64,000 nucleotides of DNA, taken from IMG/VR virus record IMGVR_UViG_3300032893_000031, positions 1-64,000 of that record. One strand, written 5' to 3'. The position numbers and the translations under genes are program-made. Each line of letters opens with the position of its first letter. The stretch's first letter is position 1. This DNA is from a virus. Below, piece by piece: positions 654 through 46,447 of this stretch. A model generated the notes under the pieces. The model saw nothing but the letters and a program-made list of their open reading frames with translations, was not told the origin of the DNA and did not search any database.

Positions 654-856
654 CCGAAGCCACCATCGAATCCGCCTTCACCCGCGTTGCCCAACTCGTG
701 CCCGAGCCAGGCCAGACGCGCACGCTCCTGCTCAAGAGCCTGCTCGCCGGTTGCGTGCTGGTGGTGCGCGACGTGGAGCACGGCGGGAGCAAGGCCATGA
801 CGTTTTCGCCGGGGTGCGCGGTGAGGCGGGTCAATGAGAAGATGGGTTTGAAATGA
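650..856 (+). CDS. Small hypothetical protein
   Basis: 68-aa ORF with ATGA overlaps to both neighbours. No recognisable motif. Confidence 0.5.
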   Translation: MTEATIESAFTRVAQLVPEPGQTRTLLLKSLLAGCVLVVRDVEHGGSKAMTFSPGCAVRRVNEKMGLK

Positions 857-1890
857 ACGCCGAGACGCTGAAATCGCCTTTCCCTTACTTTGGGGGCAAG
901 TCCAAGATCGCCCCGTTGGTTTGGGAGCGATTTGGCCGGGTCGAGAACTACGTAGAGCCGTTCTTTGGTTCGGGCGCAGTCCTCTTGGCGCGGCCTGATG
1001 ATCCCACGACCGAAACCGTTAACGACAAGGACGGTCTGCTCTCGAATTTCTGGAGGGCAGTCAAATCCAACCCAGAGGCCGTCGCGCACCACGCCGATTG
1101 GCCGGTGAACGAGAACGACCTGCACGCCCGCCACGCATGGCTGGTTGGGGTGAAGGATTCACTACAGGCTCGGCTTGAGGGCGACCCGGAATACTCTGAC
1201 GCGAAAATCGCCGGCTGGTGGGTGTGGGGCATGTCTGCTTGGATCGGCTCTGGGTTCTGTTCGGGCAACGGCCCCTGGCGGATAGCGGACGTTGACGGCG
1301 TTCGGCAGCTTGTTCATCTCGGCACCGACGGTCAGGGAGTGAATCGGAAGCTTGTTCATCTCGGGGATGAGGGTCGGGGAGTGAATCGGAAGCGTGATGG
1401 CATCGAGCGCAAACGGCCTGTGATTGCTGGAGCGGCCGGCGGTTCGGTGCTGCCCGTCAACGGCGCTCTGTTTGATTTCTTCGGCCAACTTTCCGAGAGG
1501 CTTCGCAATGTCCGTGTCTGCTGCGGCGACTGGTCGAGGGTGTGTGGACCATCCGTAACTTGCAAGCACGGCATGACGGCGGTGTTCCTTGACCCGCCGT
1601 ATTCCTCGGAGTCCGGCCGCGACGGCAGACTCTACCGCGAGGACTGCATGAAGGTTGCTCACGCTGTCAGGCAATGGGCGATTGCGAACGGAGACAACCC
1701 GCTGATGCGAATTGCGCTGTGCGGTTACGAAGGCGAGCACACGCTGCCCGACACCTGGGATTGCATGGCCTGGAATGCCGGAGAGGGATTTGGCGGGCAA
1801 GCCGTCGAGCGCAGCGGCAACGGCAAGCGCGAGCGGATTTGGTTCAGCCCCGCGTGCGCCCAACCACAACCCGAACTCGCCCTCACATGA
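853..1890 (+). CDS. DNA N6-adenine methyltransferase, D12/Dam-like class
   Basis: Motifs PFPYFGGKSK, EPFFGSGAV (FxGxG SAM site) and FLDPPY (catalytic DPPY) occur in D12-class order. Contains an in-frame 2 x 42-bp tandem duplication at 1307-1390. Confidence 0.8.
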   Translation: MNAETLKSPFPYFGGKSKIAPLVWERFGRVENYVEPFFGSGAVLLARPDDPTTETVNDKDGLLSNFWRAVKSNPEAVAHHADWPVNENDLHARHAWLVGVKDSLQARLEGDPEYSDAKIAGWWVWGMSAWIGSGFCSGNGPWRIADVDGVRQLVHLGTDGQGVNRKLVHLGDEGRGVNRKRDGIERKRPVIAGAAGGSVLPVNGALFDFFGQLSERLRNVRVCCGDWSRVCGPSVTCKHGMTAVFLDPPYSSESGRDGRLYREDCMKVAHAVRQWAIANGDNPLMRIALCGYEGEHTLPDTWDCMAWNAGEGFGGQAVERSGNGKRERIWFSPACAQPQPELALT

Positions 1891-3014
1891 CCCACCCGAC
1901 CAGCGCGGTGGAGAGGACACACCTCGACCTGTTCACAGGGCTGGCCGGTTTCTCTCTGGCGGCCGCAGCCAACAGTGTCCGCACCATCGCCCAGGTTGAG
2001 AAAGAGGAATTTCTTTTGGACGGCCTAAAACGAGCGTGGCCTGACGCACAACACTATGACGACATCAAACAATTCGACGGCAGACCTTTTCTTGGGGTCT
2101 GGCTCTGCACATTCGGAACACCTTGCCAGCCGGCCAGTCGAGCCGGGGAGCAGCGAGGCGCGAGCGATGACCGCTGGCTCTGGGACCAAGCTTGCCGCAT
2201 TGTTGCGGAGTCGCAGCCCGCTTGGTTCATTGGTGAAAATCCTCCTGGGATTCTCGACGTGGGGCTCGACGGAATCCTTGCTGAGTTGGAGGGGCTCGGC
2301 TACGAGGTCCAACCGGTCTCTATACCGGCTTGTGCCGTTGATTCGCCACAAGACCGGGAGAGAATTTGGATTATCGGGCATCGCAATGGCGAACTGGGCA
2401 ACGTGCCGAAGTTGGGATTGGAAAGGCCAGACGCAGCGGGTTTGGTACGTAGACGACTCGTTGCCCAACCAACTCAAGGCGAGTTTGTGGGGCACGCCGC
2501 AACGTTCCAATGCGGAGACGGAAGGACGCCGAGACCCGAAGCGCAAGGGCGAGAGACAAATCCTCCTGCCAGGCCAACTGAAAGCCAGCCTGTGGCCGAC
2601 GGCGCAAGCTGCCCAAGCGTTGGGCGGACAGAGAAACCGGGGCGGCGACCGCAAAGGCGAACTGCTCCTGGGAGGGATGCTCAAATCGGCGTTGTGGCGG
2701 GCGCCGGGGAAAGAGGACACGGGCCGGGGACCGTCGCAAGTCGAGGACAGGATAGCGGGGGGCCACGCGATACACTTTGCAGACCAGCTTCACACGGTTG
2801 GTCTGACTACCAATGGCTGCTCTGCCCAGACGTCAAAGGAGGCTCCGTCGTTCGCCGCGCTCCAACTGGCCTTCACTCTTTGGCTGCAAGGGTACAGTCT
2901 GGAATACCTAAGCGATTTCGTTCAAAAATGATTGCAGCCTTGGGAAATTCCATCGTGTGGCCAGTGGCCTCGGAGATAATTCGAGCGATGATCCTTGCGG
3001 AAGATAGGCCATAG
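1887..3014 (+). CDS. DNA cytosine-5 methyltransferase; the central target-recognition part appears to be read in a different frame (frameshifted, recoded or split)
   Basis: ATG 1887 overlaps the upstream stop (ATGA). Frame 0 carries DLFTGLAGFS (motif I), GTPCQPAS (IV), GENPPG (VI), QDRERIWIIG (VIII) and the C-terminal ALGNSIVWPVA (X). The WPTP-type repeats (ANWATCRSWDWKG, LWGTPQ, LWPTAQ) lie in the +1 frame at 2386-2931. Confidence 0.7.
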   Translation: MTHPTSAVERTHLDLFTGLAGFSLAAAANSVRTIAQVEKEEFLLDGLKRAWPDAQHYDDIKQFDGRPFLGVWLCTFGTPCQPASRAGEQRGASDDRWLWDQACRIVAESQPAWFIGENPPGILDVGLDGILAELEGLGYEVQPVSIPACAVDSPQDRERIWIIGHRNGELGNVPKLGLERPDAAGLVRRRLVAQPTQGEFVGHAATFQCGDGRTPRPEAQGRETNPPARPTESQPVADGASCPSVGRTEKPGRRPQRRTAPGRDAQIGVVAGAGERGHGPGTVASRGQDSGGPRDTLCRPASHGWSDYQWLLCPDVKGGSVVRRAPTGLHSLAARVQSGIPKRFRSKMIAALGNSIVWPVASEIIRAMILAEDRP

Positions 3015-3751: not shown

Positions 3752-4032
3752 ATGAAACAACCGAAACCAAATATTCCTTTGCTTGTGACCACCGCCCATC
3801 GCGGCGTGTTCTTCGGCTACGGCCAACGCTCGGACGCACCTACCATTGATCTTGAGAAGGCCCGCATGTGTATTTATTGGTCATCCGACTTGCGTGGGGT
3901 GCTCGGGCTGGCGACTGCTGGTCCGTCCGGCAACTGCAAGATTGGACCCGCCGTCGAGCACATCACGCTGCGCGACGTGACTTCCGTTGTTGAATGCACG
4001 CCCGAAGCCGCTGCAAATTGGGAGAAAGGAAT

Positions 4033-4042
<10 letters not shown>
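3752..4042 (+). CDS. Hypothetical protein that looks like a conserved phage protein
   Basis: ORF starting MKQPKPN after the intergenic gap. Well-mixed composition (LLVTTAHRGVFFGYG, IYWSSDLRGVLGLATAGP). No function recognised. Confidence 0.55.
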
Positions 4043-4712
<670 letters not shown>

Positions 4713-4713
<1 letters not shown>

Positions 4714-4853: not shown

Positions 4854-5056
4854 CCACCGTCCAGGAAATCGCCTGCTCGTTCGCGTTCTGGCAGCCCGCG
4901 TGGGGTTCGTTTCCAGCGATGGACTTTTACAACCTGAAAGAGCCGATTCCAAGCCATCCAATGAACAGCACGGTATCGCGGCAGACGATTGAGAAAGCGG
5001 GATACGCCGTGCCCGAGGCTGAGGCCGCGAAGGCGCTGGAAGCGAGGAAGGCGTGA
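4850..5056 (+). CDS. Small hypothetical protein
   Basis: 68-aa ORF starting MTTVQEIA, with an ATGA overlap to the upstream ORF. Confidence 0.45.
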   Translation: MTTVQEIACSFAFWQPAWGSFPAMDFYNLKEPIPSHPMNSTVSRQTIEKAGYAVPEAEAAKALEARKA

Positions 5057-5059
5057 GAA

Positions 5060-5806
5060 TGATTTTGACGAGTGGCATCCCGGAAGGACGGGAAGCTTTG
5101 GATGCGGAACGGTACTCCAATCCCCAGGCCAGTAGCGCGAACAGATACGGGGTCAAGGCCAGCGTTAGCGCCCCCGGGCTGACGGGTGAGTTCAAGAACC
5201 GTTCCAGCCGGTATCAAACCCAGCCCGCTCGTCATTCCAAATTCCCACAAACCGCGCAAGGAGCGGATTGCGAACGTTGGCCCATGAACCAACGGTGGAT
5301 GGCTGGTAGCAATCCTAAACCTGCACCCAAAGGACTGGGTTGGCCGGGTTATGAGCCACTGATGAAAAACCCGGGACGGGCGGATAATGAGTGCCCCCGC
5401 AGCCCGATAGGGATACAGCCATCCACGATTTTACGCCAGCATAGTGTAAATGCATGCCAGGGGCTTGCCCCTGGAGGAGAGGGGGGAGATCCCTCGGCTG
5501 GCTTCAATACCCACAAAAAGCCGGGGCTGCTCAGCAACGGCGAAGTGCGGCAGGGACTAAGAGGGTTATCCGTACGCGGGGTTGATCGGTCCCGAACCAA
5601 CGATCCGTTTGGCGGCGCACAGGAAGCGAGTCCGGCGATTCGAGGCATTAGCGTCGAGTCAAAGCACCGGAACGCCTGCACCGAAGCACCGTATAAAACC
5701 GCCTGCGTTCCTGCCGAAGATAGCCGCCAAGTGAGCAGCCCAAATGATTTCGCGGCACCCACCGCAGCCGTGGCCGAGTCCGCCCGCATCGGCCACGGCG
5801 ATTTTT
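5060..5806 (+). ncRNA. Candidate large structured RNA of about 750 nt (family unknown). The alternative reading is a 251-codon GTG-initiated ORF at 5053-5808.
   Basis: Nested long-range helices are present, for example 5295-5305/5416-5426 (11 bp) and 5066-5072/5228-5234, together with many local GC hairpins. The region ends in an intrinsic terminator. The ORF product is poor in hydrophobic residues and uses several rare-looking codons. Confidence 0.45.
5767..5806 (+). terminator. Rho-independent terminator
   Basis: GCCGTGGCCGA (5767-5777) pairs perfectly with TCGGCCACGGC (5789-5799) around an 11-nt loop, followed by GATTTTT. Confidence 0.7.
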
Positions 5807-5814
5807 AACCGAAT

Positions 5815-7218
5815 ATGAAAGCAACCTATCTCAAAATCAAAAACATCGGCCTGATAGCCGACGTTACCATCCAACTCGACAAGCCGCTGATTCTGTTCTA
5901 CGGCGAAATCCGCCAGGGCAAGACCACCATCCTCAAGGCCGTGCGCTGGGCGTTCGGCGGCAGCTTCCCGCAGGACATTATCCGTCACGGCGAGAAAGAG
6001 GCGTTCGTGGAGCTTGGATTCTCTGGCGGGCTCGTGCGCCGGGAGTGGTATCGCGCCAAGAATGGCGACACCAAGGCGCGAGACATTGACTTTGTGATCG
6101 GTGGCCGCCCGGCGAAAGAGCCGGTGACGGAATTGAAGAAATTCCTGAACCCGTTCTTGCTGGACCAGGACCACCTGCTTCGCATGGGCGAAACCGACCG
6201 CAAGAAATTCTTCACCGACCTTTTCGCGGTTGACACTACCGCGCTGGACACCGAGGCGTATAATCTCGACCGCGAGGCCAGCACGCTCCGGGTGGAGATC
6301 AAAGCCTACGGTGCGATTGATACCACGCCGGTTCAGAAGCCAGACGCGATGGCGCTCAAGGACAAGCTCAAAGCCATCAAGGACGGGCACGCCGAAAAGG
6401 TTAAAGGCTGGCGGCATGAGATCGAGAAGCTGAATACTGCCCACCGGGAAAAGGCGGGGCAGGCCAACAAGGATAATGAGGCTATCGCTGGCCACAATGC
6501 GACAGTCACCTCCAAACAGAACAAGCTTGGGGACACCGAATCATTCATCCTCAGCCTCAAGGCGCAACTGAAAGACGCCGAGGCTTCCCGTGATGCCTTG
6601 AAAAAGTGGCTTGCCGAAAACCCAAAGAAAGAATCAGCGGCAATCCCGCCCGCGCCAGACACTTCCGAATTGCAGGCGAAGATTGATGCCCAACCCGACA
6701 CGGCGGACCTTGAGCGCCAGATTTCCGACGCCGGGGCCGCGCAAGTGCGATACGAGCAATATGAAGCCAACCTGAACCGCGCGAAGGAAAAGCAAGCCAA
6801 GGAAACCGCGCTCTCCGAGAAGGAGACTCGCCTGCGGGCCATCAAGGTTGAGAAGGCATCAAAACTCAAGACCGTTACCGACACCTGCGGGATTCCTGGG
6901 CTGGCATTCGATGACACCGGGGCCATCGTTTACGAGGGCACAACGGCCGGCATGTTGTCCACGTCGCAAATCATGCGGCTTTCGAGTCAGCTTTCGGCGA
7001 TGTATCCCGAGGGTTTCGGGTTGGAATTGCTGGATCGCGGCGAATCCCTCGGCAAGTCCATCTTCCTCTTTGTCGAACAGGCCAAACGCGAGGAAAAGAC
7101 CATCCTGGCAACCATCGTTGGCGAGAAGCCCGCAGCGGTGCCGGAAAACATTGGGGTGTTTGTGGTCGAACAAGGAGCGGTCAAAGCCGCCCCCGCCACC
7201 GAAGGGGGTGCGAAGTGA
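5815..7218 (+). CDS. SMC/RecF/SbcC-like AAA ATPase with a central coiled coil (recombination module)
   Basis: N-terminal LKIKNIGLI...FYGEIRQGKTTIL (Walker A). Long K/E/A-rich coiled-coil middle. C-terminal LSTSQIMRLS (signature-like) and LELLDRGESL (Walker B/D-loop-like). Confidence 0.7.
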   Translation: MKATYLKIKNIGLIADVTIQLDKPLILFYGEIRQGKTTILKAVRWAFGGSFPQDIIRHGEKEAFVELGFSGGLVRREWYRAKNGDTKARDIDFVIGGRPAKEPVTELKKFLNPFLLDQDHLLRMGETDRKKFFTDLFAVDTTALDTEAYNLDREASTLRVEIKAYGAIDTTPVQKPDAMALKDKLKAIKDGHAEKVKGWRHEIEKLNTAHREKAGQANKDNEAIAGHNATVTSKQNKLGDTESFILSLKAQLKDAEASRDALKKWLAENPKKESAAIPPAPDTSELQAKIDAQPDTADLERQISDAGAAQVRYEQYEANLNRAKEKQAKETALSEKETRLRAIKVEKASKLKTVTDTCGIPGLAFDDTGAIVYEGTTAGMLSTSQIMRLSSQLSAMYPEGFGLELLDRGESLGKSIFLFVEQAKREEKTILATIVGEKPAAVPENIGVFVVEQGAVKAAPATEGGAK

Positions 7219-39617: not shown

Positions 39618-39821
39618 ATGATTCAGAATCTCGTCTGTTCCGTCCCACGCAAGAAAGTCCTGCCGAAAGTTCCACACGCACACGTCCAGCAACACCCGTT
39701 GCATGACAGCGCGTTTTTGCTCTACCCGATTGAGAAGCACCAGTTCGTGGTGGACCCGATGGATGATTACAGATGCAAGCGTTGCCACCGGCCAAGGTGC
39801 CTTCACCTGACGCCTGATTAA
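39618..39821 (+). CDS. Small opposite-strand ORF (67 aa, Cys/His-containing)
   Basis: By eye, third-position GC content is higher than in the competing minus-strand frame. Contains CKRCHRPRC. The 3' end overlaps the stop of the 2209-aa gene. Confidence 0.35.
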   Translation: MIQNLVCSVPRKKVLPKVPHAHVQQHPLHDSAFLLYPIEKHQFVVDPMDDYRCKRCHRPRCLHLTPD

Positions 39822-42800
39822 CGGGCGGGTGCGGCGGGCACTTGCTGGCGTAACCACGGAATTCCGGTTTCGAGCGTTTGGCCAATGGTCTCTGGCTTGC
39901 GCTTTGTCCCTTGGTCCTGCCACTCGGCGGCCTTCTGGACGGCGGCGGGGATGAGGACGGACTTCGCCTGATCTTGCAACCAGCGGGCGCGGGTATAGGG
40001 GTTGCGCAGCTTCTCGATCTCCAATTCCTCTCGGATGAACGGCACTTGTTCGACCAGTCCCCATGCGGCGGCCATCACGCCCGCAGCGAGCCCCTGCGGT
40101 TCGGTGTCCTTCTTGCGGAGATAAGATTCTGACACCCGCCGAACAGTCGCCCCAATCTGCGCGGTTTCGAGCAAGGGATTGTGCAGGAGCCAACTCGGGA
40201 CATCGTGGCCATAAACGCGGATTGATCCGGCGGGCACGTCACCTTTCTCGCGCTTCTTCCCCGGCTGATAGTAGCCGCCAACCACATTCGGATTGAAATA
40301 GCCCAGCAGGAGGACGGCTGCGCCCAGCGATCCCTTCTTCAACTCGCGCATGATGAGGTCGGCCTGTTCGGGCTTGAGATTCTCGATGCCACGTGAGTAG
40401 GCGGCCATCAGCCGCACCGGGGCGCTCGCCAACCCGCCGACGTATTGCATGGTCTCGCCCACGATGTTCAAGGGCACCCGGACAATCGGCAGGGCCACAC
40501 GGCCAGCTGTTGACCACGCCTTGCTGCCTGGGGTGGCGTGCCCAGTGGTCTTGTCAATCTTCTGCGAGAGAAAGGCCGACACCTTGGAGGCGATGAAGTT
40601 GTCTTGCAGGAAGATCGCCGCATTGGCCGCCTTGTAGGCTTCGACGGCAATCCGGGTTTTGACAAACTCATCGTTGGGGTCCAACCCCTGCTTGGCGTAG
40701 AACTCGCCCAACCTTTGGACGGCCCGCTCGAACGCCGCGCGTTTCACCGGGGCCTTGAGCATCCCGTGAATCCTTCCAGGGAGCGCCAGCATCCGGCTGC
40801 CAAATTCGTATTCTCCGGTGTAGGACTCGGCGGCCTTGCCGTAGAGCACATCTAGGTCGGTATGGCCTTTGCGGATCACATCGTAGGCGTCCTTCATGCC
40901 TTTGGTGAACGCCGCGCCGTATCCGGTCATCTCGGCTTTGAGATTCAGGCCGGCACCTTCCAGGGGCGCCTTCTCGGCCACGCCAGTTACGCCGGGTAAG
41001 CGCCGATAGGCCGTGCCGGCCAGATCCTCCAAGGGCAAGGTCGCCAGCCGTTGCAGGCCCGCCGAAATCAGCTTGGGCAGCACGACAGGCGAGGAAAGGA
41101 CACCAAAGCGACGGTATTTGGTGGCCATATCTGCCGCCTTCTCCCAATTCGTGCGATTCTTGAGCCGGTCGGCCAGCAGGGCCTCGCGGAACCGCTTCTT
41201 CACCCGCTCGGCGGCGGCCTTGAGGCGCATGGCATCGGCGTCCAGTTCGAGGGTCCGGCGTGGGCGCGGGTCGAATTCCTTGTCGGCCAGCCGTTGCTCG
41301 TAATCCTTGATGCGGTTGGCCAGCGTGGTTTTCATCGTGTCCAACGCGGACTTGAGTTGAGTCTCCGGGTCTTGGACGGGCACCTGGAACCGGAACTTCG
41401 CATCGTTCACCCGCTTGATTAGCTGGCGCTCGGCCTCGGTGGGGGTTCGGCGCTCGACGCCCGATTTGGCGGGCGGCACGCCTTTGGCCATGTCCTCCAG
41501 CTTGGCCAGTTGTTGGAGTTCACCCTTCATCCCGCGCAGGGCGACCGTGATTTGGTCCTTGGTCAGCGTTTTGTAATCGCCGTAGCCTGAGAAGGCGTCC
41601 ATGACTTCCCGGCGGGTGATGTTTGGGTCGGCCCCTTGCATGACTTCATGCAGGGCATCCACCATCGCCTCACGCTCGGTGATGCCGTTGGCGTAGAGCA
41701 GGCGGGCAAGCTGTTGAAGCATGAACGGAATCTTCTCCTTCTGCTTCCTGTCCATCTTGTCTTTGATGGCCTTGCCAACGGCTTCCTTGGCCTCGGGCAC
41801 GCTCATACCCCGGATGGCGGTCTTAACCGGCTCAGGCTTGCCGGCGGTCGCGGTGTTCAGCAATTCCTCGGCTTTGGCCCGGACTTCATCCAGGTGGGGG
41901 CGGACCCATTCGCCGACATCGGCAATCATCTTCGCCCCCCACTCGGCGGCGTCCACGATCTTGTGGGCAAGGTGGCTGGCACCAATCTCGGCCAGGTCGA
42001 GCAACACCGTGGGGTCAACCCCGGCGGTGGTGCGGCCCATGCGGGCGCGAATTCGTTCACGCGCGGCATCAGCCTTCTTGTCCAGAGTGGAGACAATCTT
42101 GCGGGCGGCCTCGAGTACCTTGGGGTGAATGTCCAACCCTTTGGCGGACTCAGCCATCGCCCGCTTCATGGCCTCCTCGCGCAGCCGGTTCTCAGATTGA
42201 GTTCGGTAATCCTCGAAAGCCTTTTGCGCCCGCTCGATCTCGCCATGCAGGCGGGCGATCTCCGCGTTCTCGCCGTCGGTTAGAGGACGGCCGCCAACCG
42301 CCGCCCGCTTGTCCAGCATCATCTTGGCCAGCGTGAAATCCTCGTAGGCCATCATCTTGCGGGCATTCAGGCCGCGCCCGGTCTCGGTGCCGACTTGCTT
42401 GCCGATGTCGTAAAGCTCCTGGAGTTTGTCCGAGAGGTTGGCCACACGGATTTTCTCCGTTTCGGCGGCTTCGGTGCGGCCTTCGTCATGGGCGAGGGCT
42501 AGATCGCGGGTGGCCTTGCCGTATTCGTTTTGGAGGTCAACTTGGCGATGGAGCAACAGCGCATCCTCGGTGTCGTTCAAGGCTCGTGGCTTGGCCTTGA
42601 GGTCTGCAATCAGCCGGTCCTGGGTGTCGGGGTCGTGATCAATCATCGCCATCGCCCGGTCCCAGACTTCGCCAAAACTGCGCTTGAGCGGTTGGATGGC
42701 TGGCGGCAAGCCGCGCGTGGCCCGCTCCTGATCAACCGTCGCGTTCTTGATGCTGGTCGGTGTGCGGGGCGATTGCTCAAATTCCTGCGGGATGGCGCCG

Positions 42801-45800
42801 CCCATGCCGGGGCCGACAGCGGCGGGTTCTGGTGGCGGGGCTTCCGTCGTTATGGATTCCTCGGGAGGATGTTGCAAGTCAACCCCAGTATCAGGTTGCG
42901 CCATGCGAACATTCCTCGCCGCCAGATCAGCCGTCTTTTCGATCTTTCGCTTGGCAATTTCCAAGACTGGCGCGTACTTCTTTTTGTCCGCATCGCTCAG
43001 TTTGGAAACCACCGCATCTAAATCGGCTTGAGTTGGGTCAGGGTTTTCGTGCAGTTCACGAACCAAAGATTCAGAATCCATCGCTTCGGATTCTGGTTCG
43101 AGTGCAGCCTTTTCCTTCGCCGCCTGTTGCTCGAAAGATTCGGCGTTCCTCTCGAATTCGGCCAGCCGTTTTTGATTCTCTTCCAGCCGCGATTGCAGGT
43201 CCGCAAGTTCCTGTTTGTGCCGCGCCGTCTTGCGCTTCACCTTCTCAATCTTGGCAATGGCATCCCGAAAGCTCTGTGCGCCCTCTCGGTAGGTGGCAGC
43301 AGAGTCCCTTGCTTTCTCGGCCTTCGTTTCCAAAACACCGGCTTTTGTCCTCGGATACAACTCGCCGATGAGAGCGTCTGCCGCCTGTATCTGCGAATTC
43401 CATTCCTCCCGGCCAGCGGAATCTCGCGGTGGTTCCTGGGATTGCAGAGCGTTTTTCTGGCGCACTGCCGTTTGATACGCGGCCTCGGGACTGCCGTAGG
43501 CTTTGACGATTTTATCCGCCTGCTCGGACAACTTGCCTTCGCCTCCTGACGGAACCGGCTTGGTGGATTGCGAAGTCGTTTTTATCCTCGCCGCCCGGTC
43601 GCGTAATTCAAGCAACTCAGGACCGCTCCGAACAACCGTAAACTCTCCGTCGTTGGGGATGCTGATGGTAGCTTTGCCTTTCCCAACAGCACCAGCGGCG
43701 GCAATCACGCGGCGGGCATCCTCAAGGCTGTCCTCCTTGCTCGAGTACCAAGCCTTGCCTCTGCCTGGACCGCCAGAAACCGTCACCTTGAATTTGCCAT
43801 CTTCTTCGACAATATCGCCGTAAGCCGTGCCCGCGACATAACGACCATCACCCCGGTCCACCAACGGAGTTTCCTTTTCAGATTCCTTGATGACAGAATC
43901 AATCTCATCTTCGAGGGCGTCAACAATCCCCTCTTTGGCTTGGCGGGCTTTCTTTGCGCCTTGTTTGGCGGCGATCTTGGAAACCGTTTCGGCGGCCTTC
44001 GCGGCGGCAGCGGGACTGGAGCTTTCAACGGCGGGCTTGGCCGTCGGAGCCTCCGACGGCTGCGCGATGGTCTTGGTTGGGGGGGCGGGTTGTGGCTTTG
44101 AACTTAGTTCGCCTTCTGGCAAATCAATGCCTTGTCGCGCAAGGAAGGCGTTGACCTTTGAGCCGATGTTTTTGAAAAACTCAACCTTGTCGCCCTGCGA
44201 ACTGGACTCCCTCGTCGTGTATCGGTCCAGATATTTCGCAATGTCCGACTTGGTTTTGCCAAGCTCTTTGAGGCGTCGAGCCGCGATGACCGCGCTAATG
44301 AACCTGTCGCTATTCGGTTTTTCTTCAACTCCACGTTCAACCGCTGACACAAGCGCAGAGGCAAGCAGGTCGGGATCGGTTTCCTCGGCAATTTCCGCTG
44401 GATTGAGCCGCCGGTCGGTCTCCCATGATTTCCAGGGTCCGGCGCGTTGGTTGAATGGCCCATCGAAGAACGCTTCTAGCCTCTTGCGCTGATTGGGGCT
44501 GAGGGTTTTTTCAAAGCGAGTTGTCTCGCCTTCCCGCATCAAAAGCTCTTGAAGCCTCTTGGCCTGCTCTGCGGTGATGCCGATTTGCTCTTGGTAAAGC
44601 TGGCGCTCTTCCTCAAGGCGCTTCTTTCGGAACTTGAGAATATCAGCAATCGAATTGAACGACTCGGGTTCAGGTGCTTGGACGATATTGGTTTTTGGAG
44701 CAGCCTCCGCACCCTTTGCCCCCTTCGCCTTCTCGGGTTCGGTGGGTGGTGCCGGTTCGGCGCTGGCGGGTGCCGTGGGTGCAGGCTTCTCAGCAGGCTT
44801 CTCCACCTTCTCCAACTCGTAATCCACCGGCAAGAGCTTGCTCGAAATCAAATCCTCGCTGTGCAGGCGGCGGTCCTTGTCGAAGGGCTTACCAGTCTCC
44901 TTCTCGTAGATCGCCTTGGCTTGTTCGCTGTCGGCGGGGATGAAGGTGTTATCCGGCAGCAGGTAGCCGCGCAGATGCTCGTTGTCATCAGGGATGGACT
45001 CGCCCTTGCCGCGAGCCTCACCGATGGCCTCGGAGTGCGTGCGTCCGGTGTAATAGCCGCCCGGCGCATTGATGGCGGGGCGCAGCGGCGGGACAGCCGC
45101 TACATCCGGTTTCGCGGGTGCTTCGGGTTCGGGTGCTTTCGCGCCCCCTTCACGCCCTCTTTCATCATCTTTCGTGACTGCGCCTTCGACGGGCACTTCC
45201 CGTGCGCCTTCTCCGGGTGCGTTGCGCACAGGGCGAAGAAGTTGTGGGCTTTCTGGCTGTACGGCATTTGGACCTTTCTCTGGTTGCGGCTTGGGTGCAA
45301 TCGCTTGTTCCGCCAACGCGGCGGCGGTCGCGGGCGCCCCGGCCTGTTTGGTTTGTTGAACGGCGGCGGCCACGCCCGAGGGCATCATCTGGCCGATAAC
45401 TTGGCGGTCAATGTGCTTCTCGATCTCGTCGAGATACACGGGGTTGCGGACCATCTGGTGCATGGCCTCGGCAGCCCGCTGCAAATCGGTTTGGCTGGCC
45501 TGAGTGTGGCTTTGGACTTTGGAGAGCAAGCCCGGAGCTTCCATCAGCAGCCACGCGCTGTTGGCCGTCACGTTCTCCACCAGCATCTTCTTGCGCTCGT
45601 CGGGTGCGGCGGCGATGTACTTGGGCAGGTCCACGCCCGCCATGAAAAGCTGCATCCCGCCCTGAGAAGCCAATGCCTCGACGGACTTCTGCACGATTGG
45701 TCGGCTGGCCGATGTGATGCCACGGTCAATGGCCTCGACCAAGAGCTTGCTCGCGCCCGCCTTGGCTATCGCGCCGGATTCTGGGATGGCTGCGCCAATG

Positions 45801-46447
45801 GCCCCGGCGGTGATGGCCTGCCCAACATCGGCGCCTTCATCCAACGCCTGTGCGGTGCTCAGCGTGCCAAACGCCAGCGGCATCGGGACGCCCGCCGATT
45901 GCATGGCCATTGCCCCGGCAATCATCGGCGTGGACTTGGCCATGCCCTCGATGCCCTTGACGAAAGCATTCTGAGCGCCCGGCGTCGAGGTTTCCTCGCC
46001 CGCATGGGCAATGGCTTCCAGCGGGTTCTGGCCGAATTCGGCTTTCTTCACCGCTTCCTCGGCGGTTGTGCCAGCCCCGCGCAAGAGCTTGCCGACGGCG
46101 CCAATGAAATCGAACGCCCGCGCGATATTCTCGCCGTAACTGAGGGCCTTGAGTTCCGCCTTGGTTTCCAAGCCGGCCAACCCGGAGGATGCGCGTTCAG
46201 CCTCCTCCTTGCCCTTCAACCGCGCAACCGCCCGCTGTGATGCTGGGTCGTACTGGAGACGCGAGATCGAGCGAAAAGGTTCGGTGGATTCGTAAACCTG
46301 CTCGGCCCCGCCCATCAACTTGGCCTGCGCCTCTCTGACCTTGGGCGAAGCAAAGATTTCAGCGGCGTCCTCCTCGGTTGGCGGCTGGTCCCCGCTGACA
46401 ACCAGCGTCGTGCCGGTGTCGTTGTCGGTGATCTTGTAGCGGGGCAT
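39818..46447 (-). CDS. Giant virion-associated protein (internal/ejection or tape-measure-like), 2209 aa
   Basis: Single uninterrupted ORF. Long A/E/K-rich helical regions and hydrophobic segments near the C-terminus (GAAVLLLGYF, AAGVMAAAWGLV). No catalytic motif recognised. Confidence 0.6.
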   Translation of the reverse strand: MPRYKITDNDTGTTLVVSGDQPPTEEDAAEIFASPKVREAQAKLMGGAEQVYESTEPFRSISRLQYDPASQRAVARLKGKEEAERASSGLAGLETKAELKALSYGENIARAFDFIGAVGKLLRGAGTTAEEAVKKAEFGQNPLEAIAHAGEETSTPGAQNAFVKGIEGMAKSTPMIAGAMAMQSAGVPMPLAFGTLSTAQALDEGADVGQAITAGAIGAAIPESGAIAKAGASKLLVEAIDRGITSASRPIVQKSVEALASQGGMQLFMAGVDLPKYIAAAPDERKKMLVENVTANSAWLLMEAPGLLSKVQSHTQASQTDLQRAAEAMHQMVRNPVYLDEIEKHIDRQVIGQMMPSGVAAAVQQTKQAGAPATAAALAEQAIAPKPQPEKGPNAVQPESPQLLRPVRNAPGEGAREVPVEGAVTKDDERGREGGAKAPEPEAPAKPDVAAVPPLRPAINAPGGYYTGRTHSEAIGEARGKGESIPDDNEHLRGYLLPDNTFIPADSEQAKAIYEKETGKPFDKDRRLHSEDLISSKLLPVDYELEKVEKPAEKPAPTAPASAEPAPPTEPEKAKGAKGAEAAPKTNIVQAPEPESFNSIADILKFRKKRLEEERQLYQEQIGITAEQAKRLQELLMREGETTRFEKTLSPNQRKRLEAFFDGPFNQRAGPWKSWETDRRLNPAEIAEETDPDLLASALVSAVERGVEEKPNSDRFISAVIAARRLKELGKTKSDIAKYLDRYTTRESSSQGDKVEFFKNIGSKVNAFLARQGIDLPEGELSSKPQPAPPTKTIAQPSEAPTAKPAVESSSPAAAAKAAETVSKIAAKQGAKKARQAKEGIVDALEDEIDSVIKESEKETPLVDRGDGRYVAGTAYGDIVEEDGKFKVTVSGGPGRGKAWYSSKEDSLEDARRVIAAAGAVGKGKATISIPNDGEFTVVRSGPELLELRDRAARIKTTSQSTKPVPSGGEGKLSEQADKIVKAYGSPEAAYQTAVRQKNALQSQEPPRDSAGREEWNSQIQAADALIGELYPRTKAGVLETKAEKARDSAATYREGAQSFRDAIAKIEKVKRKTARHKQELADLQSRLEENQKRLAEFERNAESFEQQAAKEKAALEPESEAMDSESLVRELHENPDPTQADLDAVVSKLSDADKKKYAPVLEIAKRKIEKTADLAARNVRMAQPDTGVDLQHPPEESITTEAPPPEPAAVGPGMGGAIPQEFEQSPRTPTSIKNATVDQERATRGLPPAIQPLKRSFGEVWDRAMAMIDHDPDTQDRLIADLKAKPRALNDTEDALLLHRQVDLQNEYGKATRDLALAHDEGRTEAAETEKIRVANLSDKLQELYDIGKQVGTETGRGLNARKMMAYEDFTLAKMMLDKRAAVGGRPLTDGENAEIARLHGEIERAQKAFEDYRTQSENRLREEAMKRAMAESAKGLDIHPKVLEAARKIVSTLDKKADAARERIRARMGRTTAGVDPTVLLDLAEIGASHLAHKIVDAAEWGAKMIADVGEWVRPHLDEVRAKAEELLNTATAGKPEPVKTAIRGMSVPEAKEAVGKAIKDKMDRKQKEKIPFMLQQLARLLYANGITEREAMVDALHEVMQGADPNITRREVMDAFSGYGDYKTLTKDQITVALRGMKGELQQLAKLEDMAKGVPPAKSGVERRTPTEAERQLIKRVNDAKFRFQVPVQDPETQLKSALDTMKTTLANRIKDYEQRLADKEFDPRPRRTLELDADAMRLKAAAERVKKRFREALLADRLKNRTNWEKAADMATKYRRFGVLSSPVVLPKLISAGLQRLATLPLEDLAGTAYRRLPGVTGVAEKAPLEGAGLNLKAEMTGYGAAFTKGMKDAYDVIRKGHTDLDVLYGKAAESYTGEYEFGSRMLALPGRIHGMLKAPVKRAAFERAVQRLGEFYAKQGLDPNDEFVKTRIAVEAYKAANAAIFLQDNFIASKVSAFLSQKIDKTTGHATPGSKAWSTAGRVALPIVRVPLNIVGETMQYVGGLASAPVRLMAAYSRGIENLKPEQADLIMRELKKGSLGAAVLLLGYFNPNVVGGYYQPGKKREKGDVPAGSIRVYGHDVPSWLLHNPLLETAQIGATVRRVSESYLRKKDTEPQGLAAGVMAAAWGLVEQVPFIREELEIEKLRNPYTRARWLQDQAKSVLIPAAVQKAAEWQDQGTKRKPETIGQTLETGIPWLRQQVPAAPAR

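Follow-up and report, generated by a model that had tools for sequence, protein, structure and literature searches.

A candidate structured RNA family spanned by a stop-free reading frame in early operons of uncultivated temperate phages

The large RNAs GOLLD and ROOL are often encoded beside tRNA genes in phage or prophage DNA. They are phage-borne, several hundred nucleotides long and built of many helices, with pseudoknots and support from covariation (described in part in PMC12286853), and they assemble into homo-oligomeric cages (PMC12286853). The element studied here lies on the + strand of the window, by which we mean the whole 64,000-nt stretch of viral DNA that was analysed, and seven further distinct copies were found in phage and metagenome contigs (n = 8 with that of the window). 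A resemblance to GOLLD and ROOL had been pointed out in the initial annotation of the locus; it holds for size, phage setting and multi-helix architecture, but no covariance-model match was obtained even at E ≤ 10. The present family also differs from these RNAs in that no tRNA genes adjoin it (window and five homologue loci), and in that an open frame without stops always runs across it and is coupled to the gene that follows, a feature of which we know no description in GOLLD or ROOL.

Several other systems combine a folded RNA with translation or with control of an early operon. In attenuators and coupled operons, the movement of ribosomes through structured RNA decides on terminator formation or on downstream translation. 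Our elements are like attenuation of the trp type and the coat/replicase coupling of the MS2 type in their overlapping stop and start codons and, in the window and one homologue (L115), in a terminator placed within the translated stretch. Leader-peptide attenuators consist of 14–30 codons and simple alternative hairpins and have a diagnostic amino-acid content, whereas the present frames extend over 88–280 codons and contain a tertiary core that is conserved and includes invariant loops as well as a pseudoknot; their amino-acid content is irrelevant, and no antiterminator pairing was identified in the family. The put sequence of HK022, an untranslated RNA of about 70 nt with two stem-loops, acts in cis in processive antitermination. 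Like put, the element is a phage early-operon RNA, with a putative promoter before it and a terminator to be read through after it, and is independent of the downstream genes, but the two share no sequence or structure similarity. A fold and a reading frame coexist in one molecule also in tmRNA, SgrS and RNAIII, in which a short ORF coding for a conserved peptide lies outside the main fold; in the present family, on the other hand, the frame crosses the fold and the peptide is not conserved. The DRT2 defence RNA ‘neo’ is a structured non-coding RNA with one frame free of stops; it adjoins a reverse transcriptase, and its open frame matters only after rolling-circle cDNA synthesis. By contrast, the annotation shows no reverse transcriptase around the window copy or L114 (no RVT-type Pfam families among the genes within ±10 kb), and the frame is linear and joined to its neighbours.

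In the window, the frame begins 2 nt 3' of the TGA of the upstream gene, with AGGAAGG located 8 nt before ATG 5059, and ends 6 nt before the ATG of an AAA ATPase gene devoid of an SD-like motif. This gene is followed by those of ERF, a single-strand-annealing protein, and the exonuclease YqaJ, and the operon is coupled mostly through 4-nt overlaps. Given these short distances on both sides, the break in the ATGA-coupled gene chain that had been proposed at this point is not real. The ORF itself, running from GTG 5053 or ATG 5059 to TAA 5808, exists as annotated, and so does its peculiar composition: R, G, P, S and N make up 44% of the product (25% in neighbouring genes), V, L, I, M, F and W 17% (27% in neighbours), and the codons AGA, ATA, CTA, TTA and GTA occur at 36 per 1000 against 16 per 1000. 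The GC content at the three codon positions is flat (0.62/0.57/0.60, as compared with about 0.62/0.43/0.73 in neighbouring genes). Although called as a gene by gene callers, the ORF encodes a product with no Pfam or PHROG family match, which in a word-indexed search of 5.8 billion proteins matched itself alone and which is predicted to be disordered (AlphaFold2 on the single sequence; pLDDT 43, no secondary structure).

The nine complementarities proposed initially are all present in the DNA, as judged from the sequence and an inverted-repeat scan (Table 1). The minimum free energy of the region, −311.8 kcal/mol, is lower than that of dinucleotide-shuffled controls (z = −4.0 with 20 shuffles, −3.2 with 24), and its z is the most negative among 14 segments tested. 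Perfect stems of at least 10 bp number three in the region, compared with a mean of 0.23 per 750-nt segment, and one of 254 segments reaches three; in a plain GC regression, the + strand of the region ranks merely 27th of 254. The folding signal is confined to 5240–5806 (z = −3.2 to −4.8 by part; −3.75 for 5240–5745), while 5057–5239 is indistinguishable from shuffles (z = −1.3). Thus, the proposal of a large structured RNA is upheld for 5240–5806, by folding energy and by covariation among the eight homologues, but not for 5057–5239, where the suggested first domain (5066–5234) gains neither thermodynamic nor homologue support.

Table 1. Positions of features of the element in the window (numbering of the whole stretch)
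Feature	Position	Strand	Sequence, basis or remark
Pass-through reading frame, 249 codons	5059..5808	+	alternative GTG start 5053; TAA end 5808
Initially listed pairings 1–3	5066-5072/5228-5234; 5075-5080/5100-5105; 5175-5181/5221-5227	+	
Initially listed pairings 4–6	5295-5305/5416-5426 (11 bp, perfect); 5344-5350/5368-5374; 5275-5280/5289-5294	+	
Initially listed pairings 7–9	5457-5464/5467-5474; 5669-5675/5705-5711; 5767-5777/5789-5799	+	the last followed by TTTTT 5802-5806
5' stretch with the initially proposed first domain	5057..5239	+	uncertain status; in open frame, unalignable to any homologue
5' peripheral domain, common to window and long-form homologue L118	5240..5430	+	collinear k-mers, alignment, z = −3.2
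Long-range 11-bp helix closing the 5' domain	5295-5305/5416-5426	+	GTGGATGGCTG/CAGCCATCCAC; L118 covariation
Hairpin with conserved loop	5344..5374	+	CCGGGTT/AACCCGG; loop ATGAGCCACTGATGAAA
Hairpin	5378..5396	+	GGGC/GCCC; L118 GCCC/GGGC at equivalent place
Hairpin	5457..5474	+	CCAGGGGC/GCCCCTGG
A/C-rich conserved single strand leading into the core	5505..5522	+	UACCCAMAMAAAGCC; alignments A6, A9
Pa, closing the whole core	5523-5533/5732-5742 (span 5523..5742)	+	GGGGCTGCTCA/TGAGCAGCCCA
5' loop side and Pb	5534..5547	+	GCAA (invariant), CGGC (Pb 5538-5541), GAA (invariant) and 3 variable nt; alignment A9
3' loop side and Pb	5717..5731	+	AAGATA, GCCG (Pb 5723-5726), CCAAG (invariant)
Pc	5548-5554/5710-5716 (span 5548..5716)	+	CGGCAGG/CCTGCCG
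Small hairpin, conserved pentaloop	5555-5558/5564-5567 (5555..5567)	+	RNAalifold, pair counts; alternative is a 3-bp Pc extension
H-type pseudoknot, stem a	5577-5581/5590-5594 (pseudoknot 5577..5605)	+	CGGGG/TCCCG
Pseudoknot stem b	5584-5588/5601-5605	+	GATCG/CGATC; loop 3 AACCAA, A-rich
Pd	5611-5615/5699-5703 and 5606-5608/5705-5707 (span 5606..5707)	+	GGCGG/CCGCC and CGT/GCG
Intrinsic-terminator-like hairpin	5767..5806	+	GCCGTGGCCGA/TCGGCCACGGC, then GATTTTT; in last 14 codons of open frame

Homologues were gathered in several ways. A full HMMER scan gave three weak matches that had only two nucleotide islands in common. L108–L110, three of the eight copies, were found by means of ORF translations and are therefore biased towards an open frame in the phase of the window copy, and L114, L115 and L118 were added by exact-pattern scans of IMG/VR. 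A covariance model built from seven cores then recovered the eighth copy, L066/L089, with 77 bits and E = 5e-22. A gene for an AAA ATPase, 49% identical to that of the window, is located 1.2 kb downstream of this copy; a search by nhmmer, blastn and tblastn for the element upstream of AAA-ATPase homologues at about 100 loci had returned nothing, this copy being caught later by the covariance model only. The pattern CGAAGATARCCGCCAAGT had three matches in IMG/VR, all by chance and in coding genes, and L117 and L120 were likewise chance matches within genes. A six-frame pseudo-protein profile of the two islands retrieved known members only in a word-indexed search, no protein homologues were found beyond the two nucleotide-island matches, and two core sequences, compared by blastn with 50,697 records of cultured phages, had only chance matches of 22–31 nt. 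Literature searches, in which sequence strings were included, returned no description of this RNA. The homologue collection that had been proposed as a check has thus provided seven more copies with covarying base pairs and a peptide that is not conserved.

Family members reside in early operons (recombination or DNA-methylase) of uncultivated temperate phages. Their genomic neighbourhoods vary, and recombination genes are not the neighbours in the other copies. In all eight cases the element is upstream of, and co-oriented with, a gene, and it is never the last in its transcription unit. The downstream gene codes for an AAA ATPase in the window and is a lipoprotein-like ORF in L115, and the remaining copies are followed by unrelated small ORFs without a Pfam match; a test of the element as a riboswitch or gene-specific leader revealed no consistent downstream gene family or pathway among the copies.

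The conserved core, which was absent from the initial list of pairings, comprises about 170 nt and occupies positions 5505–5751 in the window, where it includes Pa, Pb, Pc, the pseudoknot and Pd. Three stacked helices, Pa, Pb and Pc, are split by two invariant internal loops, and this coaxial stack opens into a junction that bears a small hairpin, a pseudoknot of the H type and Pd, whose insert is variable. In a MAFFT alignment of eight sequences, 93.7% of cells at the 34 pairs are paired, compared with 34–40% in slid controls; 17 of these pairs have changed on both sides (35 cells), and none of 500 shuffles was as good. Pa, which has one base pair fewer in the window (10 bp) than in the homologues (11 bp), is paired in 98.9% of cells (6/11 pairs changed on both sides, n = 8), Pc in 96.4% (6/7 pairs) and Pd in 88.9% (two pairs). 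The corresponding values for the pseudoknot are 94.3% and 9/10 pairs, based on strands extracted by hand from seven sequences; it was found in L066 too. RNAalifold independently yields Pa, Pc and Pd. The copy recovered last, L066, keeps all helices through new compensatory changes, and these include Pb, invariant elsewhere, which reads TGAT/ATCG there. This covariation disfavours the shifted register of Pb put forward by RNAalifold. Pd encloses a variable domain (5616–5694 in the window, 20–116 nt in other copies). Within helices, 10 G.U against 4 C.A appositions favour the + strand as the one that folds. One of the initially listed helices, 5669–5675/5705–5711, is incompatible with Pc, which covariation supports. 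A kink-turn in the Pb/Pc loop was rejected because its G.A positions are not conserved, and a loop-E-like motif (GAA opposite ..UA) is possible there.

The 5' domains added to the core are lineage-specific. That of the window shares the strings AATTCCCA, CACCCAAAGGACTGGGTTG, AGCCACTGATG and CCGATAGGGATAC with L118, and the long-range helix that closes it, among those proposed initially, is well preserved there: the L118 strands, GTTCCCGGCTG and CTGCCGGGAAC, keep 10 of 11 pairs with four positions changed on both sides. No counterpart was found in L109, just an 8-bp stem with two G.U pairs. Compensatory changes also support the hairpin 5344/5368 (GAGGTTT/AAGCCT(A)G in L118, with A-U for C-G and U.G for G-C) and, according to the alignment, the hairpin 5457/5467, which in L109 has the form TCCCGGGC/GCCTGGGA and differs at three pairs by changes in both strands. 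Support for the 5378–5396 hairpin is weaker because the local alignment is uncertain. At the 3' end, a perfect 11-bp GC stem followed by GATTTTT makes a putative terminator of the structure noticed previously (z = −4.8 for 5746–5806); the terminator scan missed it because of its loop limit of 8 nt, whereas the equivalent one in L115 was called. Among the eight copies, just these two carry a clear terminal terminator, at the 3' end and within the frame, and more terminator-like hairpins lie inside L109, L110 and L118. The window copy has in addition an 8-nt repeat, AATGATTT, at 5058 and 5743, not seen in other copies.

No known family accommodates these sequences, in keeping with the failure to assign one by eye. 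Rfam 15, with models of GOLLD, ROOL, HEARO, introns, RNase P and tmRNA and also of OLE, raiA, group I/II introns, 6S and riboswitches, gave no match at the gathering score in the 64-kb window, a best score of 17 bits against a 45-bit threshold in 4900–5950 at E ≤ 10, and no match at E ≤ 1 in L108, L109, L110, L114, L115 or L118. A tRNA-like or tmRNA reading, to which GGGGC...GCCCC-A of Pa and the occurrence of GTGGTTCGAATCCAC in L109 might lead, is ruled out by the negative results of Rfam and ARAGORN (no tRNA or tmRNA in the window and five homologue loci) and by Pa being an uninterrupted 11-bp helix. A group I intron, suggested by the resemblance of AAGAUA to J8/7, was rejected on account of a helix order that does not fit, complete flanking genes and the lack of any covariance-model match. 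A −1 frameshift stimulator was also rejected; GGGUUAU, 7–9 nt upstream of the pseudoknot, is not tandem-slippery, and its phase varies among copies. The eight copies most probably constitute a previously undescribed structured RNA family, which in the window would cover about 5240–5806, possibly from 5057 on.

A further property of this family is that a single forward frame is free of stops in all eight copies, with 4–14 stops in each of the other two (10 and 14 in the window). The probabilities of such an open frame are 0.001 (window, 1000 dinucleotide shuffles), 0.002, <0.001, 0.020, 0.022, 0.005, <0.001 and 0.045, and Fisher's combination for the four copies found without the use of ORFs is about 1e-5 by our arithmetic. 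The frame starts at the front of the unit, either just 3' of the upstream stop or at an ATG 7–10 nt after a promoter-like −10 hexamer; the putative promoters, seen by eye and not called by a consensus scan, have TTGACA, TTGACG or TTGCCA, a 17–18-nt spacing and a weak −10. In five copies its stop and the following ATG overlap to form ATGA, and the L118 frame continues into the next gene and is in phase with it; in L066 and L115, it is the upstream gene whose phase the frame shares. On the other hand, the first nucleotide island lies in phase 2, 0 or 1 of the open frame, depending on the copy, so the conserved nucleotides are read in three frames, and a codon-level check revealed pairwise differences of 0.28/0.36/0.36 by codon position, with no third-position excess. 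The peptide is unconstrained, and the choice of frame varies relative to the conserved nucleotides. In most copies the products are basic (pI 9–11). The earlier view that this is a structured RNA rather than a protein gene oversimplifies, since the open frame is kept in 8/8 copies and coupled to the next start. Because of this preservation, passage of ribosomes across the element has probably been selected, though the peptide has not. Covariation of the fold together with the stop-free frame points to a new structured RNA family built into a frame for ribosome pass-through.

One plausible mechanism would employ the frame as a lane on which ribosomes traverse the fold to re-initiate at the gene that follows, so that folding and translation would be mutually exclusive. 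Our best guess is a cis-acting gate, linked to translation, through which the element may control the early genes downstream. In the window, a ribosome on the last codons would melt the 5767–5799 hairpin and RNA polymerase would enter AAA-ERF-YqaJ; if the fold wins, with no ribosome present or with the invariant loops binding a ligand or a protein, the transcript would end at about 5806 and leave a free folded RNA. We propose this gating tentatively and with slightly more doubt than belief. The downstream genes are unrelated among copies, which is unusual for a cis-regulator, and conserved tertiary cores are commoner in trans-acting RNAs and ribozymes than in attenuators. As a whole, an explanation by a new RNA family, a pass-through frame and a cis gate appears to us, from what the sequences offer, finely balanced between right and wrong.

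That a trans-acting structured RNA is the sole functional product, be it an RNP scaffold, a decoy or a multimeric ‘ornate’ RNA like GOLLD and ROOL, seems unlikely, but much of the evidence suits it: the unpaired GCAA, GAA, UA and CCAAG are invariant while the periphery varies, as in the cores of RNase P and ribozymes, the element stands moron-like beside unrelated genes, and a discrete terminator is present in the window and L115. The frame would then merely keep up ribosome flow, or avoid polarity, after insertion of 0.3–0.85 kb into a coupled operon, and the 4-nt overlaps and the AAA gene without an SD agree with such a need. However, 90–280 stop-free codons inside a covarying fold are a costly constraint, and we know of no large trans-acting RNA that is kept open for translation. 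Moreover, the L110 frame is open despite the GGGAGGA motif of the downstream gene's own, and the invariable position upstream of a co-oriented gene, never at the end of a transcription unit, also counts against this reading.

A ribozyme or a mobile RNA/DNA element, be it a new class with self-cleavage or self-splicing or a selfish insertion that remains translatable in order to be neutral for its host operon, could likewise account for the conservation of a core, its pseudoknot and its invariant joining regions, for neighbourhoods that differ among copies, for frames in phase with an upstream or downstream gene and for the 8-nt repeat of the window. We regard this as quite improbable, as no Rfam ribozyme or intron model matches, the repeat is missing from other copies, neither a recombinase nor a reverse transcriptase or homing endonuclease accompanies the element (neighbourhoods of the window copy and L114), and the genes on either side are separate and complete; every AAA homologue begins MK..L.IKNIG, and therefore there are no exons to join. 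The possibility of an ordinary fast-evolving ORFan gene for a disordered, basic early protein, whose mRNA is incidentally GC-rich and foldable, is largely refuted and highly improbable. Its long ORF with a plausible SD and ATG, coupling to neighbours, calls by gene annotation programs and mostly high pI are outweighed by the reading of conserved nucleotides in three frames, differences without third-position excess, 17 base pairs kept through double changes, and the lack of GC3 periodicity, a predicted fold or a Pfam or PHROGs match. Least credible of all is a DNA-level element, such as a single-strand origin or a recombination or packaging site, with inverted repeats kept as DNA hairpins. The window copy does adjoin ERF and YqaJ, and its inverted repeats covary, but the a-b-a'-b' topology of the pseudoknot and the excess of G.U over C.A indicate a transcript, the orientation of the element always follows that of transcription, the neighbours of other copies are not recombination genes, and the stop-free frame would be left without a reason.

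Returning to the cis gate, a fuller formulation, which we consider rather doubtful, is that of a new class of phage regulatory RNA, a ‘ribosome-traversed riboswitch’, in which a conserved tertiary core, made up of a pseudoknot and two invariant internal loops, within an obligatorily translated, sequence-free frame would serve as a sensor or brake and couple the translation state of the host, or a bound ligand or protein, to transcription read-through and translational hand-over into early genes for recombination and anti-restriction; in the untranslated state, it may also function as a folded RNA on its own. Large structured RNAs supported by covariation are rare finds, and GOLLD, ROOL, OLE and raiA are, to our knowledge, still without an assigned function. 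The family described here would add a new fold of about 0.3–0.85 kb, with a 170-nt core and a pseudoknot, from uncultivated phages, and we know of no description of a stop-free frame that is kept while both the peptide and the choice of frame drift. All eight copies are, or would be, annotated by gene callers as hypothetical proteins; therefore, other structured RNAs may hide among ORFan ‘proteins’ with flat codon statistics. If ribosome passage is part of the working of this RNA, it would represent a new wiring of translation to RNA folding and operon expression in phages.

The stretch at 5057-5806 represents a new family of structured RNAs, located in the early operons of phages and known here from eight sequences: the copy in the window and those in seven other phage or metagenome contigs or loci (L066, L108, L109, L110, L114, L115 and L118). 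The initial annotation could not assign it to a known RNA family, and Rfam 15 indeed gave no match in the whole window at gathering thresholds; at E<=10 the best match in the element region reached 17 bits against a 45-bit cutoff. No Rfam match at E<=1 was obtained in L108, L109, L110, L114, L115 or L118, and ARAGORN found no tRNA or tmRNA. The product of the open reading frame matched only itself among 5.8 billion proteins and had no Pfam or PHROG family. No upstream similarity was detected (nhmmer, blastn, tblastn) at about 100 loci encoding relatives of the adjacent AAA ATPase, none of the cultured-phage genomes contains the element, and no description of it was found in the literature.

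The relatives were reached through a full HMMER scan of the ORF product against 1.84 billion representative proteins, which gave three weak matches (E=5e-6 to 3e-4). These are 'junk-like' ORFs that have in common with the query only the islands KPGxxSNGExR and AEDSRQVxxP, separated by a spacer of differing length. Their correlated amino-acid changes (LL/SS, LA/AS, RG/PR) are translated compensatory changes of one helix, which reads GGGCTGCTCA/TGAGCAGCCC, GGGGCTGGCGA/TCGCCAGCCCC and GGGGCGTGGCA/TGCCACGCCCC in the DNA of contigs L108-L110. Exact-pattern scans of IMG/VR with invariant nucleotides added L114, L115 and L118, the last of which recurs unchanged in three samples (L116, L119, L121). 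Seven cores served to build a covariance model; run over 624 kb of loci, it returned each of those seven copies (57-161 bits) and an eighth, divergent one, L066 (= L089; 77 bits, E=5e-22). Downstream of L066, at a distance of 1.2 kb, is the gene for an AAA ATPase that shares 49% identity with the window's ATPase. Collection-wide searches were of the exact-pattern type, and three of the eight copies were ascertained through ORFs.

Features of the element and its surroundings (window coordinates)
Feature	Position	Strand	Remark
Dam-like D12 class DNA methylase ORF (PF02086)	853-1890	+	same operon, upstream of element
C5 cytosine methylase ORF (PF00145)	1674-3014	+	same operon, upstream of element
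Small upstream gene	4808/4850-5056		flanks 5057-5806 on 5' side
Core	5505-5751		
A/C-rich leader	5505-5522		leads to Pa
Helix Pa	5523-5533 with 5732-5742		
Internal loop 1	between Pa and Pb		invariant GCAA and CCAAG
Helix Pb	5538-5541 with 5723-5726		
Internal loop 2	between Pb and Pc		invariant GAA opposite ..UA
Helix Pc	5548-5554 with 5710-5716		opens into junction
Candidate small hairpin	5555-5567		in junction
H-type pseudoknot	stem a 5577-5581/5590-5594; stem b 5584-5588/5601-5605		in junction; loop 3 A-rich
Helix Pd	5611-5615/5699-5703; extension 5606-5608/5705-5707		in junction
Variable domain	5616-5694		inside Pd; 79 nt in window
Predicted intrinsic-terminator hairpin	5767-5799 + U5		within last codons of the stop-free frame
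AAA_23-type ATPase gene	5815-7218		flanks 5057-5806 on 3' side

The fold of the conserved core is under selection. In a MAFFT alignment of the eight cores, with the variable domain taken out (20 to 116 nt in the six other model-building copies), 34 pairs are 93.7% paired, and 17 of them are changed on both sides (35 cells). On none of four measures did any of 500 column shuffles do as well, and pairing fell to 34-40% once the partners were shifted by 1-3 columns. RNAalifold independently recovered Pa, Pc and Pd. For the pseudoknot, nine of ten pairs are changed on both sides at 94% pairing, a count that leans towards the model, its strands having been picked out manually with the invariant CGUUU as reference. 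The L066 copy, which took no part in model building, preserves Pa (GGGGTTTGGCA/TGCCAAACCCC), both pseudoknot stems and Pd; its Pc is AU-rich (CACAAACAAC/GTTGTTTATG), and Pb, otherwise invariant, has become TGAT/ATCG. This covarying change from CGGC to TGAT creates, within the core of this most divergent copy, an ATGATG (L066 3599-3604) that supplies the first ATG codons of its open frame. That some nucleotides are invariant although unpaired points to a specific tertiary site, at which a ligand, a protein, RNA polymerase or the ribosome may bind.

All complementary segments listed in the initial annotation are present at the coordinates it gave, and its proposal that the whole stretch is densely folded stood for 5240-5806 (z by part -3.2, -2.8, -3.75 and -4.8 against dinucleotide shuffles) and failed for 5057-5239 (z=-1.3, indistinguishable from shuffles). 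Nothing supports its first domain, 5066-5234, as structured RNA, and its helix 5669-5675/5705-5711 competes with Pc and is missing in L110. The 750-nt fold gave z=-4.0 and z=-3.2 in two runs, the lowest among 14 windows tested, and perfect stems of 10 bp or more number three here, against a window average of 0.23; by a cruder GC regression the + strand is unremarkable (rank 27 of 254). The proposed 11-bp helix covaries between the window (GTGGATGGCTG/CAGCCATCCAC) and L118 (GTTCCCGGCTG/CTGCCGGGAAC); 10 of the 11 pairs persist, and four positions differ on both sides. The hairpin 5344/5368 and a GGGC/GCCC hairpin are likewise preserved in L118, with changes, and the hairpin 5457/5467 covaries with L109.

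From about 5240 onwards (AATTCCCA) the window runs collinear with L118, a long form, and the two have the strings CACCCAAAGGACTGGGTTG, AGCCACTGATG and CCGATAGGGATAC in common. Since the short forms (L066, L108, L110, L114, L115) are devoid of the 5' domain, this domain is a peripheral, lineage-specific addition. Long forms also carry a 5' hairpin, GGCAGGG...CCCTGCC-GAAWTAC-CCGC (L109 ~440-500; L118, element strand, ~915-975), resembling core Pc plus the 3' island (CGGCAGGG...CCTGCC-GAAGATAG-CCGCC), which may reflect internal module duplication. Terminator-like hairpins with the common loop GCTGCTCGTAAC and a following U-rich tract occur directly 5' of the core in L110 (390-414) and ~440 nt upstream of it in L118 (4382-4410, locus - strand). 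A perfect tRNA T-arm look-alike, GTGGTTCGAATCCAC, lies in the peripheral domain of L109 (925-939), where ARAGORN calls no tRNA. Directly upstream of the L115 element, at positions 1-420, a 12-nt unit (GCTGCCAGGGCC, with variants) is repeated ~30 times in tandem, and several frames are open across the array (AARAAAWD... or LPGPLPG...). The ends of L108, a Logan contig, are reverse-complementary (1-30 and 1164-1193), probably an assembly artefact.

The window copy resides in an early, temperate-phage-like operon, where 4-nt overlaps join most of the genes. Genes for an ERF single-strand-annealing protein and then a YqaJ exonuclease follow the ATPase gene, which has no SD-like motif, and two DNA methylases are encoded 2-4 kb upstream of the element. 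As listed, their ORFs overlap by ~217 nt, so the second probably has a later true start. The 20-kb context of L114 includes ERF, YqaJ, SNF2 helicase, C5 methylase and integrase, and the L109 and L118 elements are preceded by an N6/N4 methylase; a DNA methylase upstream of the element is also present in L109, L118 and L114. Some further observations concern the window itself. An ORF at 3994-4713 (+; GC 0.73, GC3 0.80-0.92, GGCGAC-type repeats) is very unlike the remaining operon in composition. A terminator-like hairpin with a T-run at 5842-5865 (-), within the first ATPase codons (conserved KIKNIG motif), is probably fortuitous. An 8-nt direct repeat, AATGATTT, at 5058-5065 (open-frame start) and 5743-5750 (immediately 3' of Pa) could be a trace of insertion; it is probably due to chance, because it was not seen flanking other copies. 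The ORF at 39818-46447 (-; 2209 aa) is possibly a structural or tail protein. Pfam matches are almost absent from the large ORFs scanned, and the phage is therefore very poorly characterised.

The second selected property is a stop-free lane through the fold, joined to the neighbouring genes. In all eight elements one forward frame runs without a stop over the full element, and the other two have 4-14 stops each. With 1000-2000 dinucleotide shuffles per copy, P was 0.001 for the window and 0.002, <0.001, 0.020, 0.022, 0.005, <0.001 and 0.045 for the others; Fisher's combination for L114, L115, L118 and L066, found purely via nucleotides or the covariance model, is about 1e-5. The minus strand is unremarkable. 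The lane's stop overlaps the next ATG as ATGA in L108, L109, L110, L114 and L115, the L118 lane continues in phase into the next gene, and the distance to the next ATG is 6 nt in the window and 11 nt in L066. The frame starts at or just past the upstream gene's stop codon in three copies (window, L115 and L066), in L115 resuming that gene's frame directly after its TAA. In L108, L109, L110 and L118 it starts at an ATG 7-10 nt past a promoter recognised by eye (TTGACA/TTGACG/TTGCCA, 17-18 nt, weak -10), preceded in L109 by a tool-detected terminator. A consensus scan misses these promoters, so we regard this step as putative.

Could the lane simply be an ordinary ORFan protein gene? The annotated ORF, from ATG 5059 or GTG 5053 to TAA 5808, does exist, with the biased composition ascribed to it (R/G/P/S/N 44% vs 25% in neighbouring genes; the five 'rare' codons 36 vs 16 per 1000), and its GC1/2/3 is flat (0.62/0.57/0.60 vs about 0.62/0.43/0.73). 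The peptide is not the conserved thing. In the window copy, L108, L109 and L110, the two conserved nucleotide islands lie in phase 2 of the frame, and in L115, L118 and L066 in phase 1; in L114, island 1 is in phase 0 and island 2 in phase 2. Substitutions among the four same-phase copies have no codon-position bias (0.28/0.36/0.36), the eight peptides are unrelated outside the islands, and AlphaFold2 gave pLDDT 43 and no secondary structure. We consider a protein gene unlikely. The same holds for a DNA-level element, the wobble pairs favouring the + strand (10 G.U vs 4 C.A), and for a ribozyme or mobile element; the element matches no known family by model, defining features or searched literature.

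As the main alternative, the RNA would act in trans and the lane would serve only to keep the operon continuous, which we regard as a tentative possibility. Ranked above it, with roughly even chances on the sequence evidence, is action in cis as a translation-linked gate. The closest analogies (the large phage RNAs GOLLD and ROOL, leader-peptide attenuation, MS2-type coupling, HK022 put and dual-function RNAs) all differ from this RNA family in defining respects. In a translation-linked gate, ribosomes would cross the element and then hand over to the next gene, so that folding and translation would exclude each other. The last lane codons of L115, like those of the window, hold a predicted intrinsic-terminator hairpin, and terminator-like hairpins lie inside L109, L110 and L118. 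A ribosome at the last lane codons of the window and L115 would suppress termination; without one, the window transcript would end at ~5806, leaving a free folded RNA.
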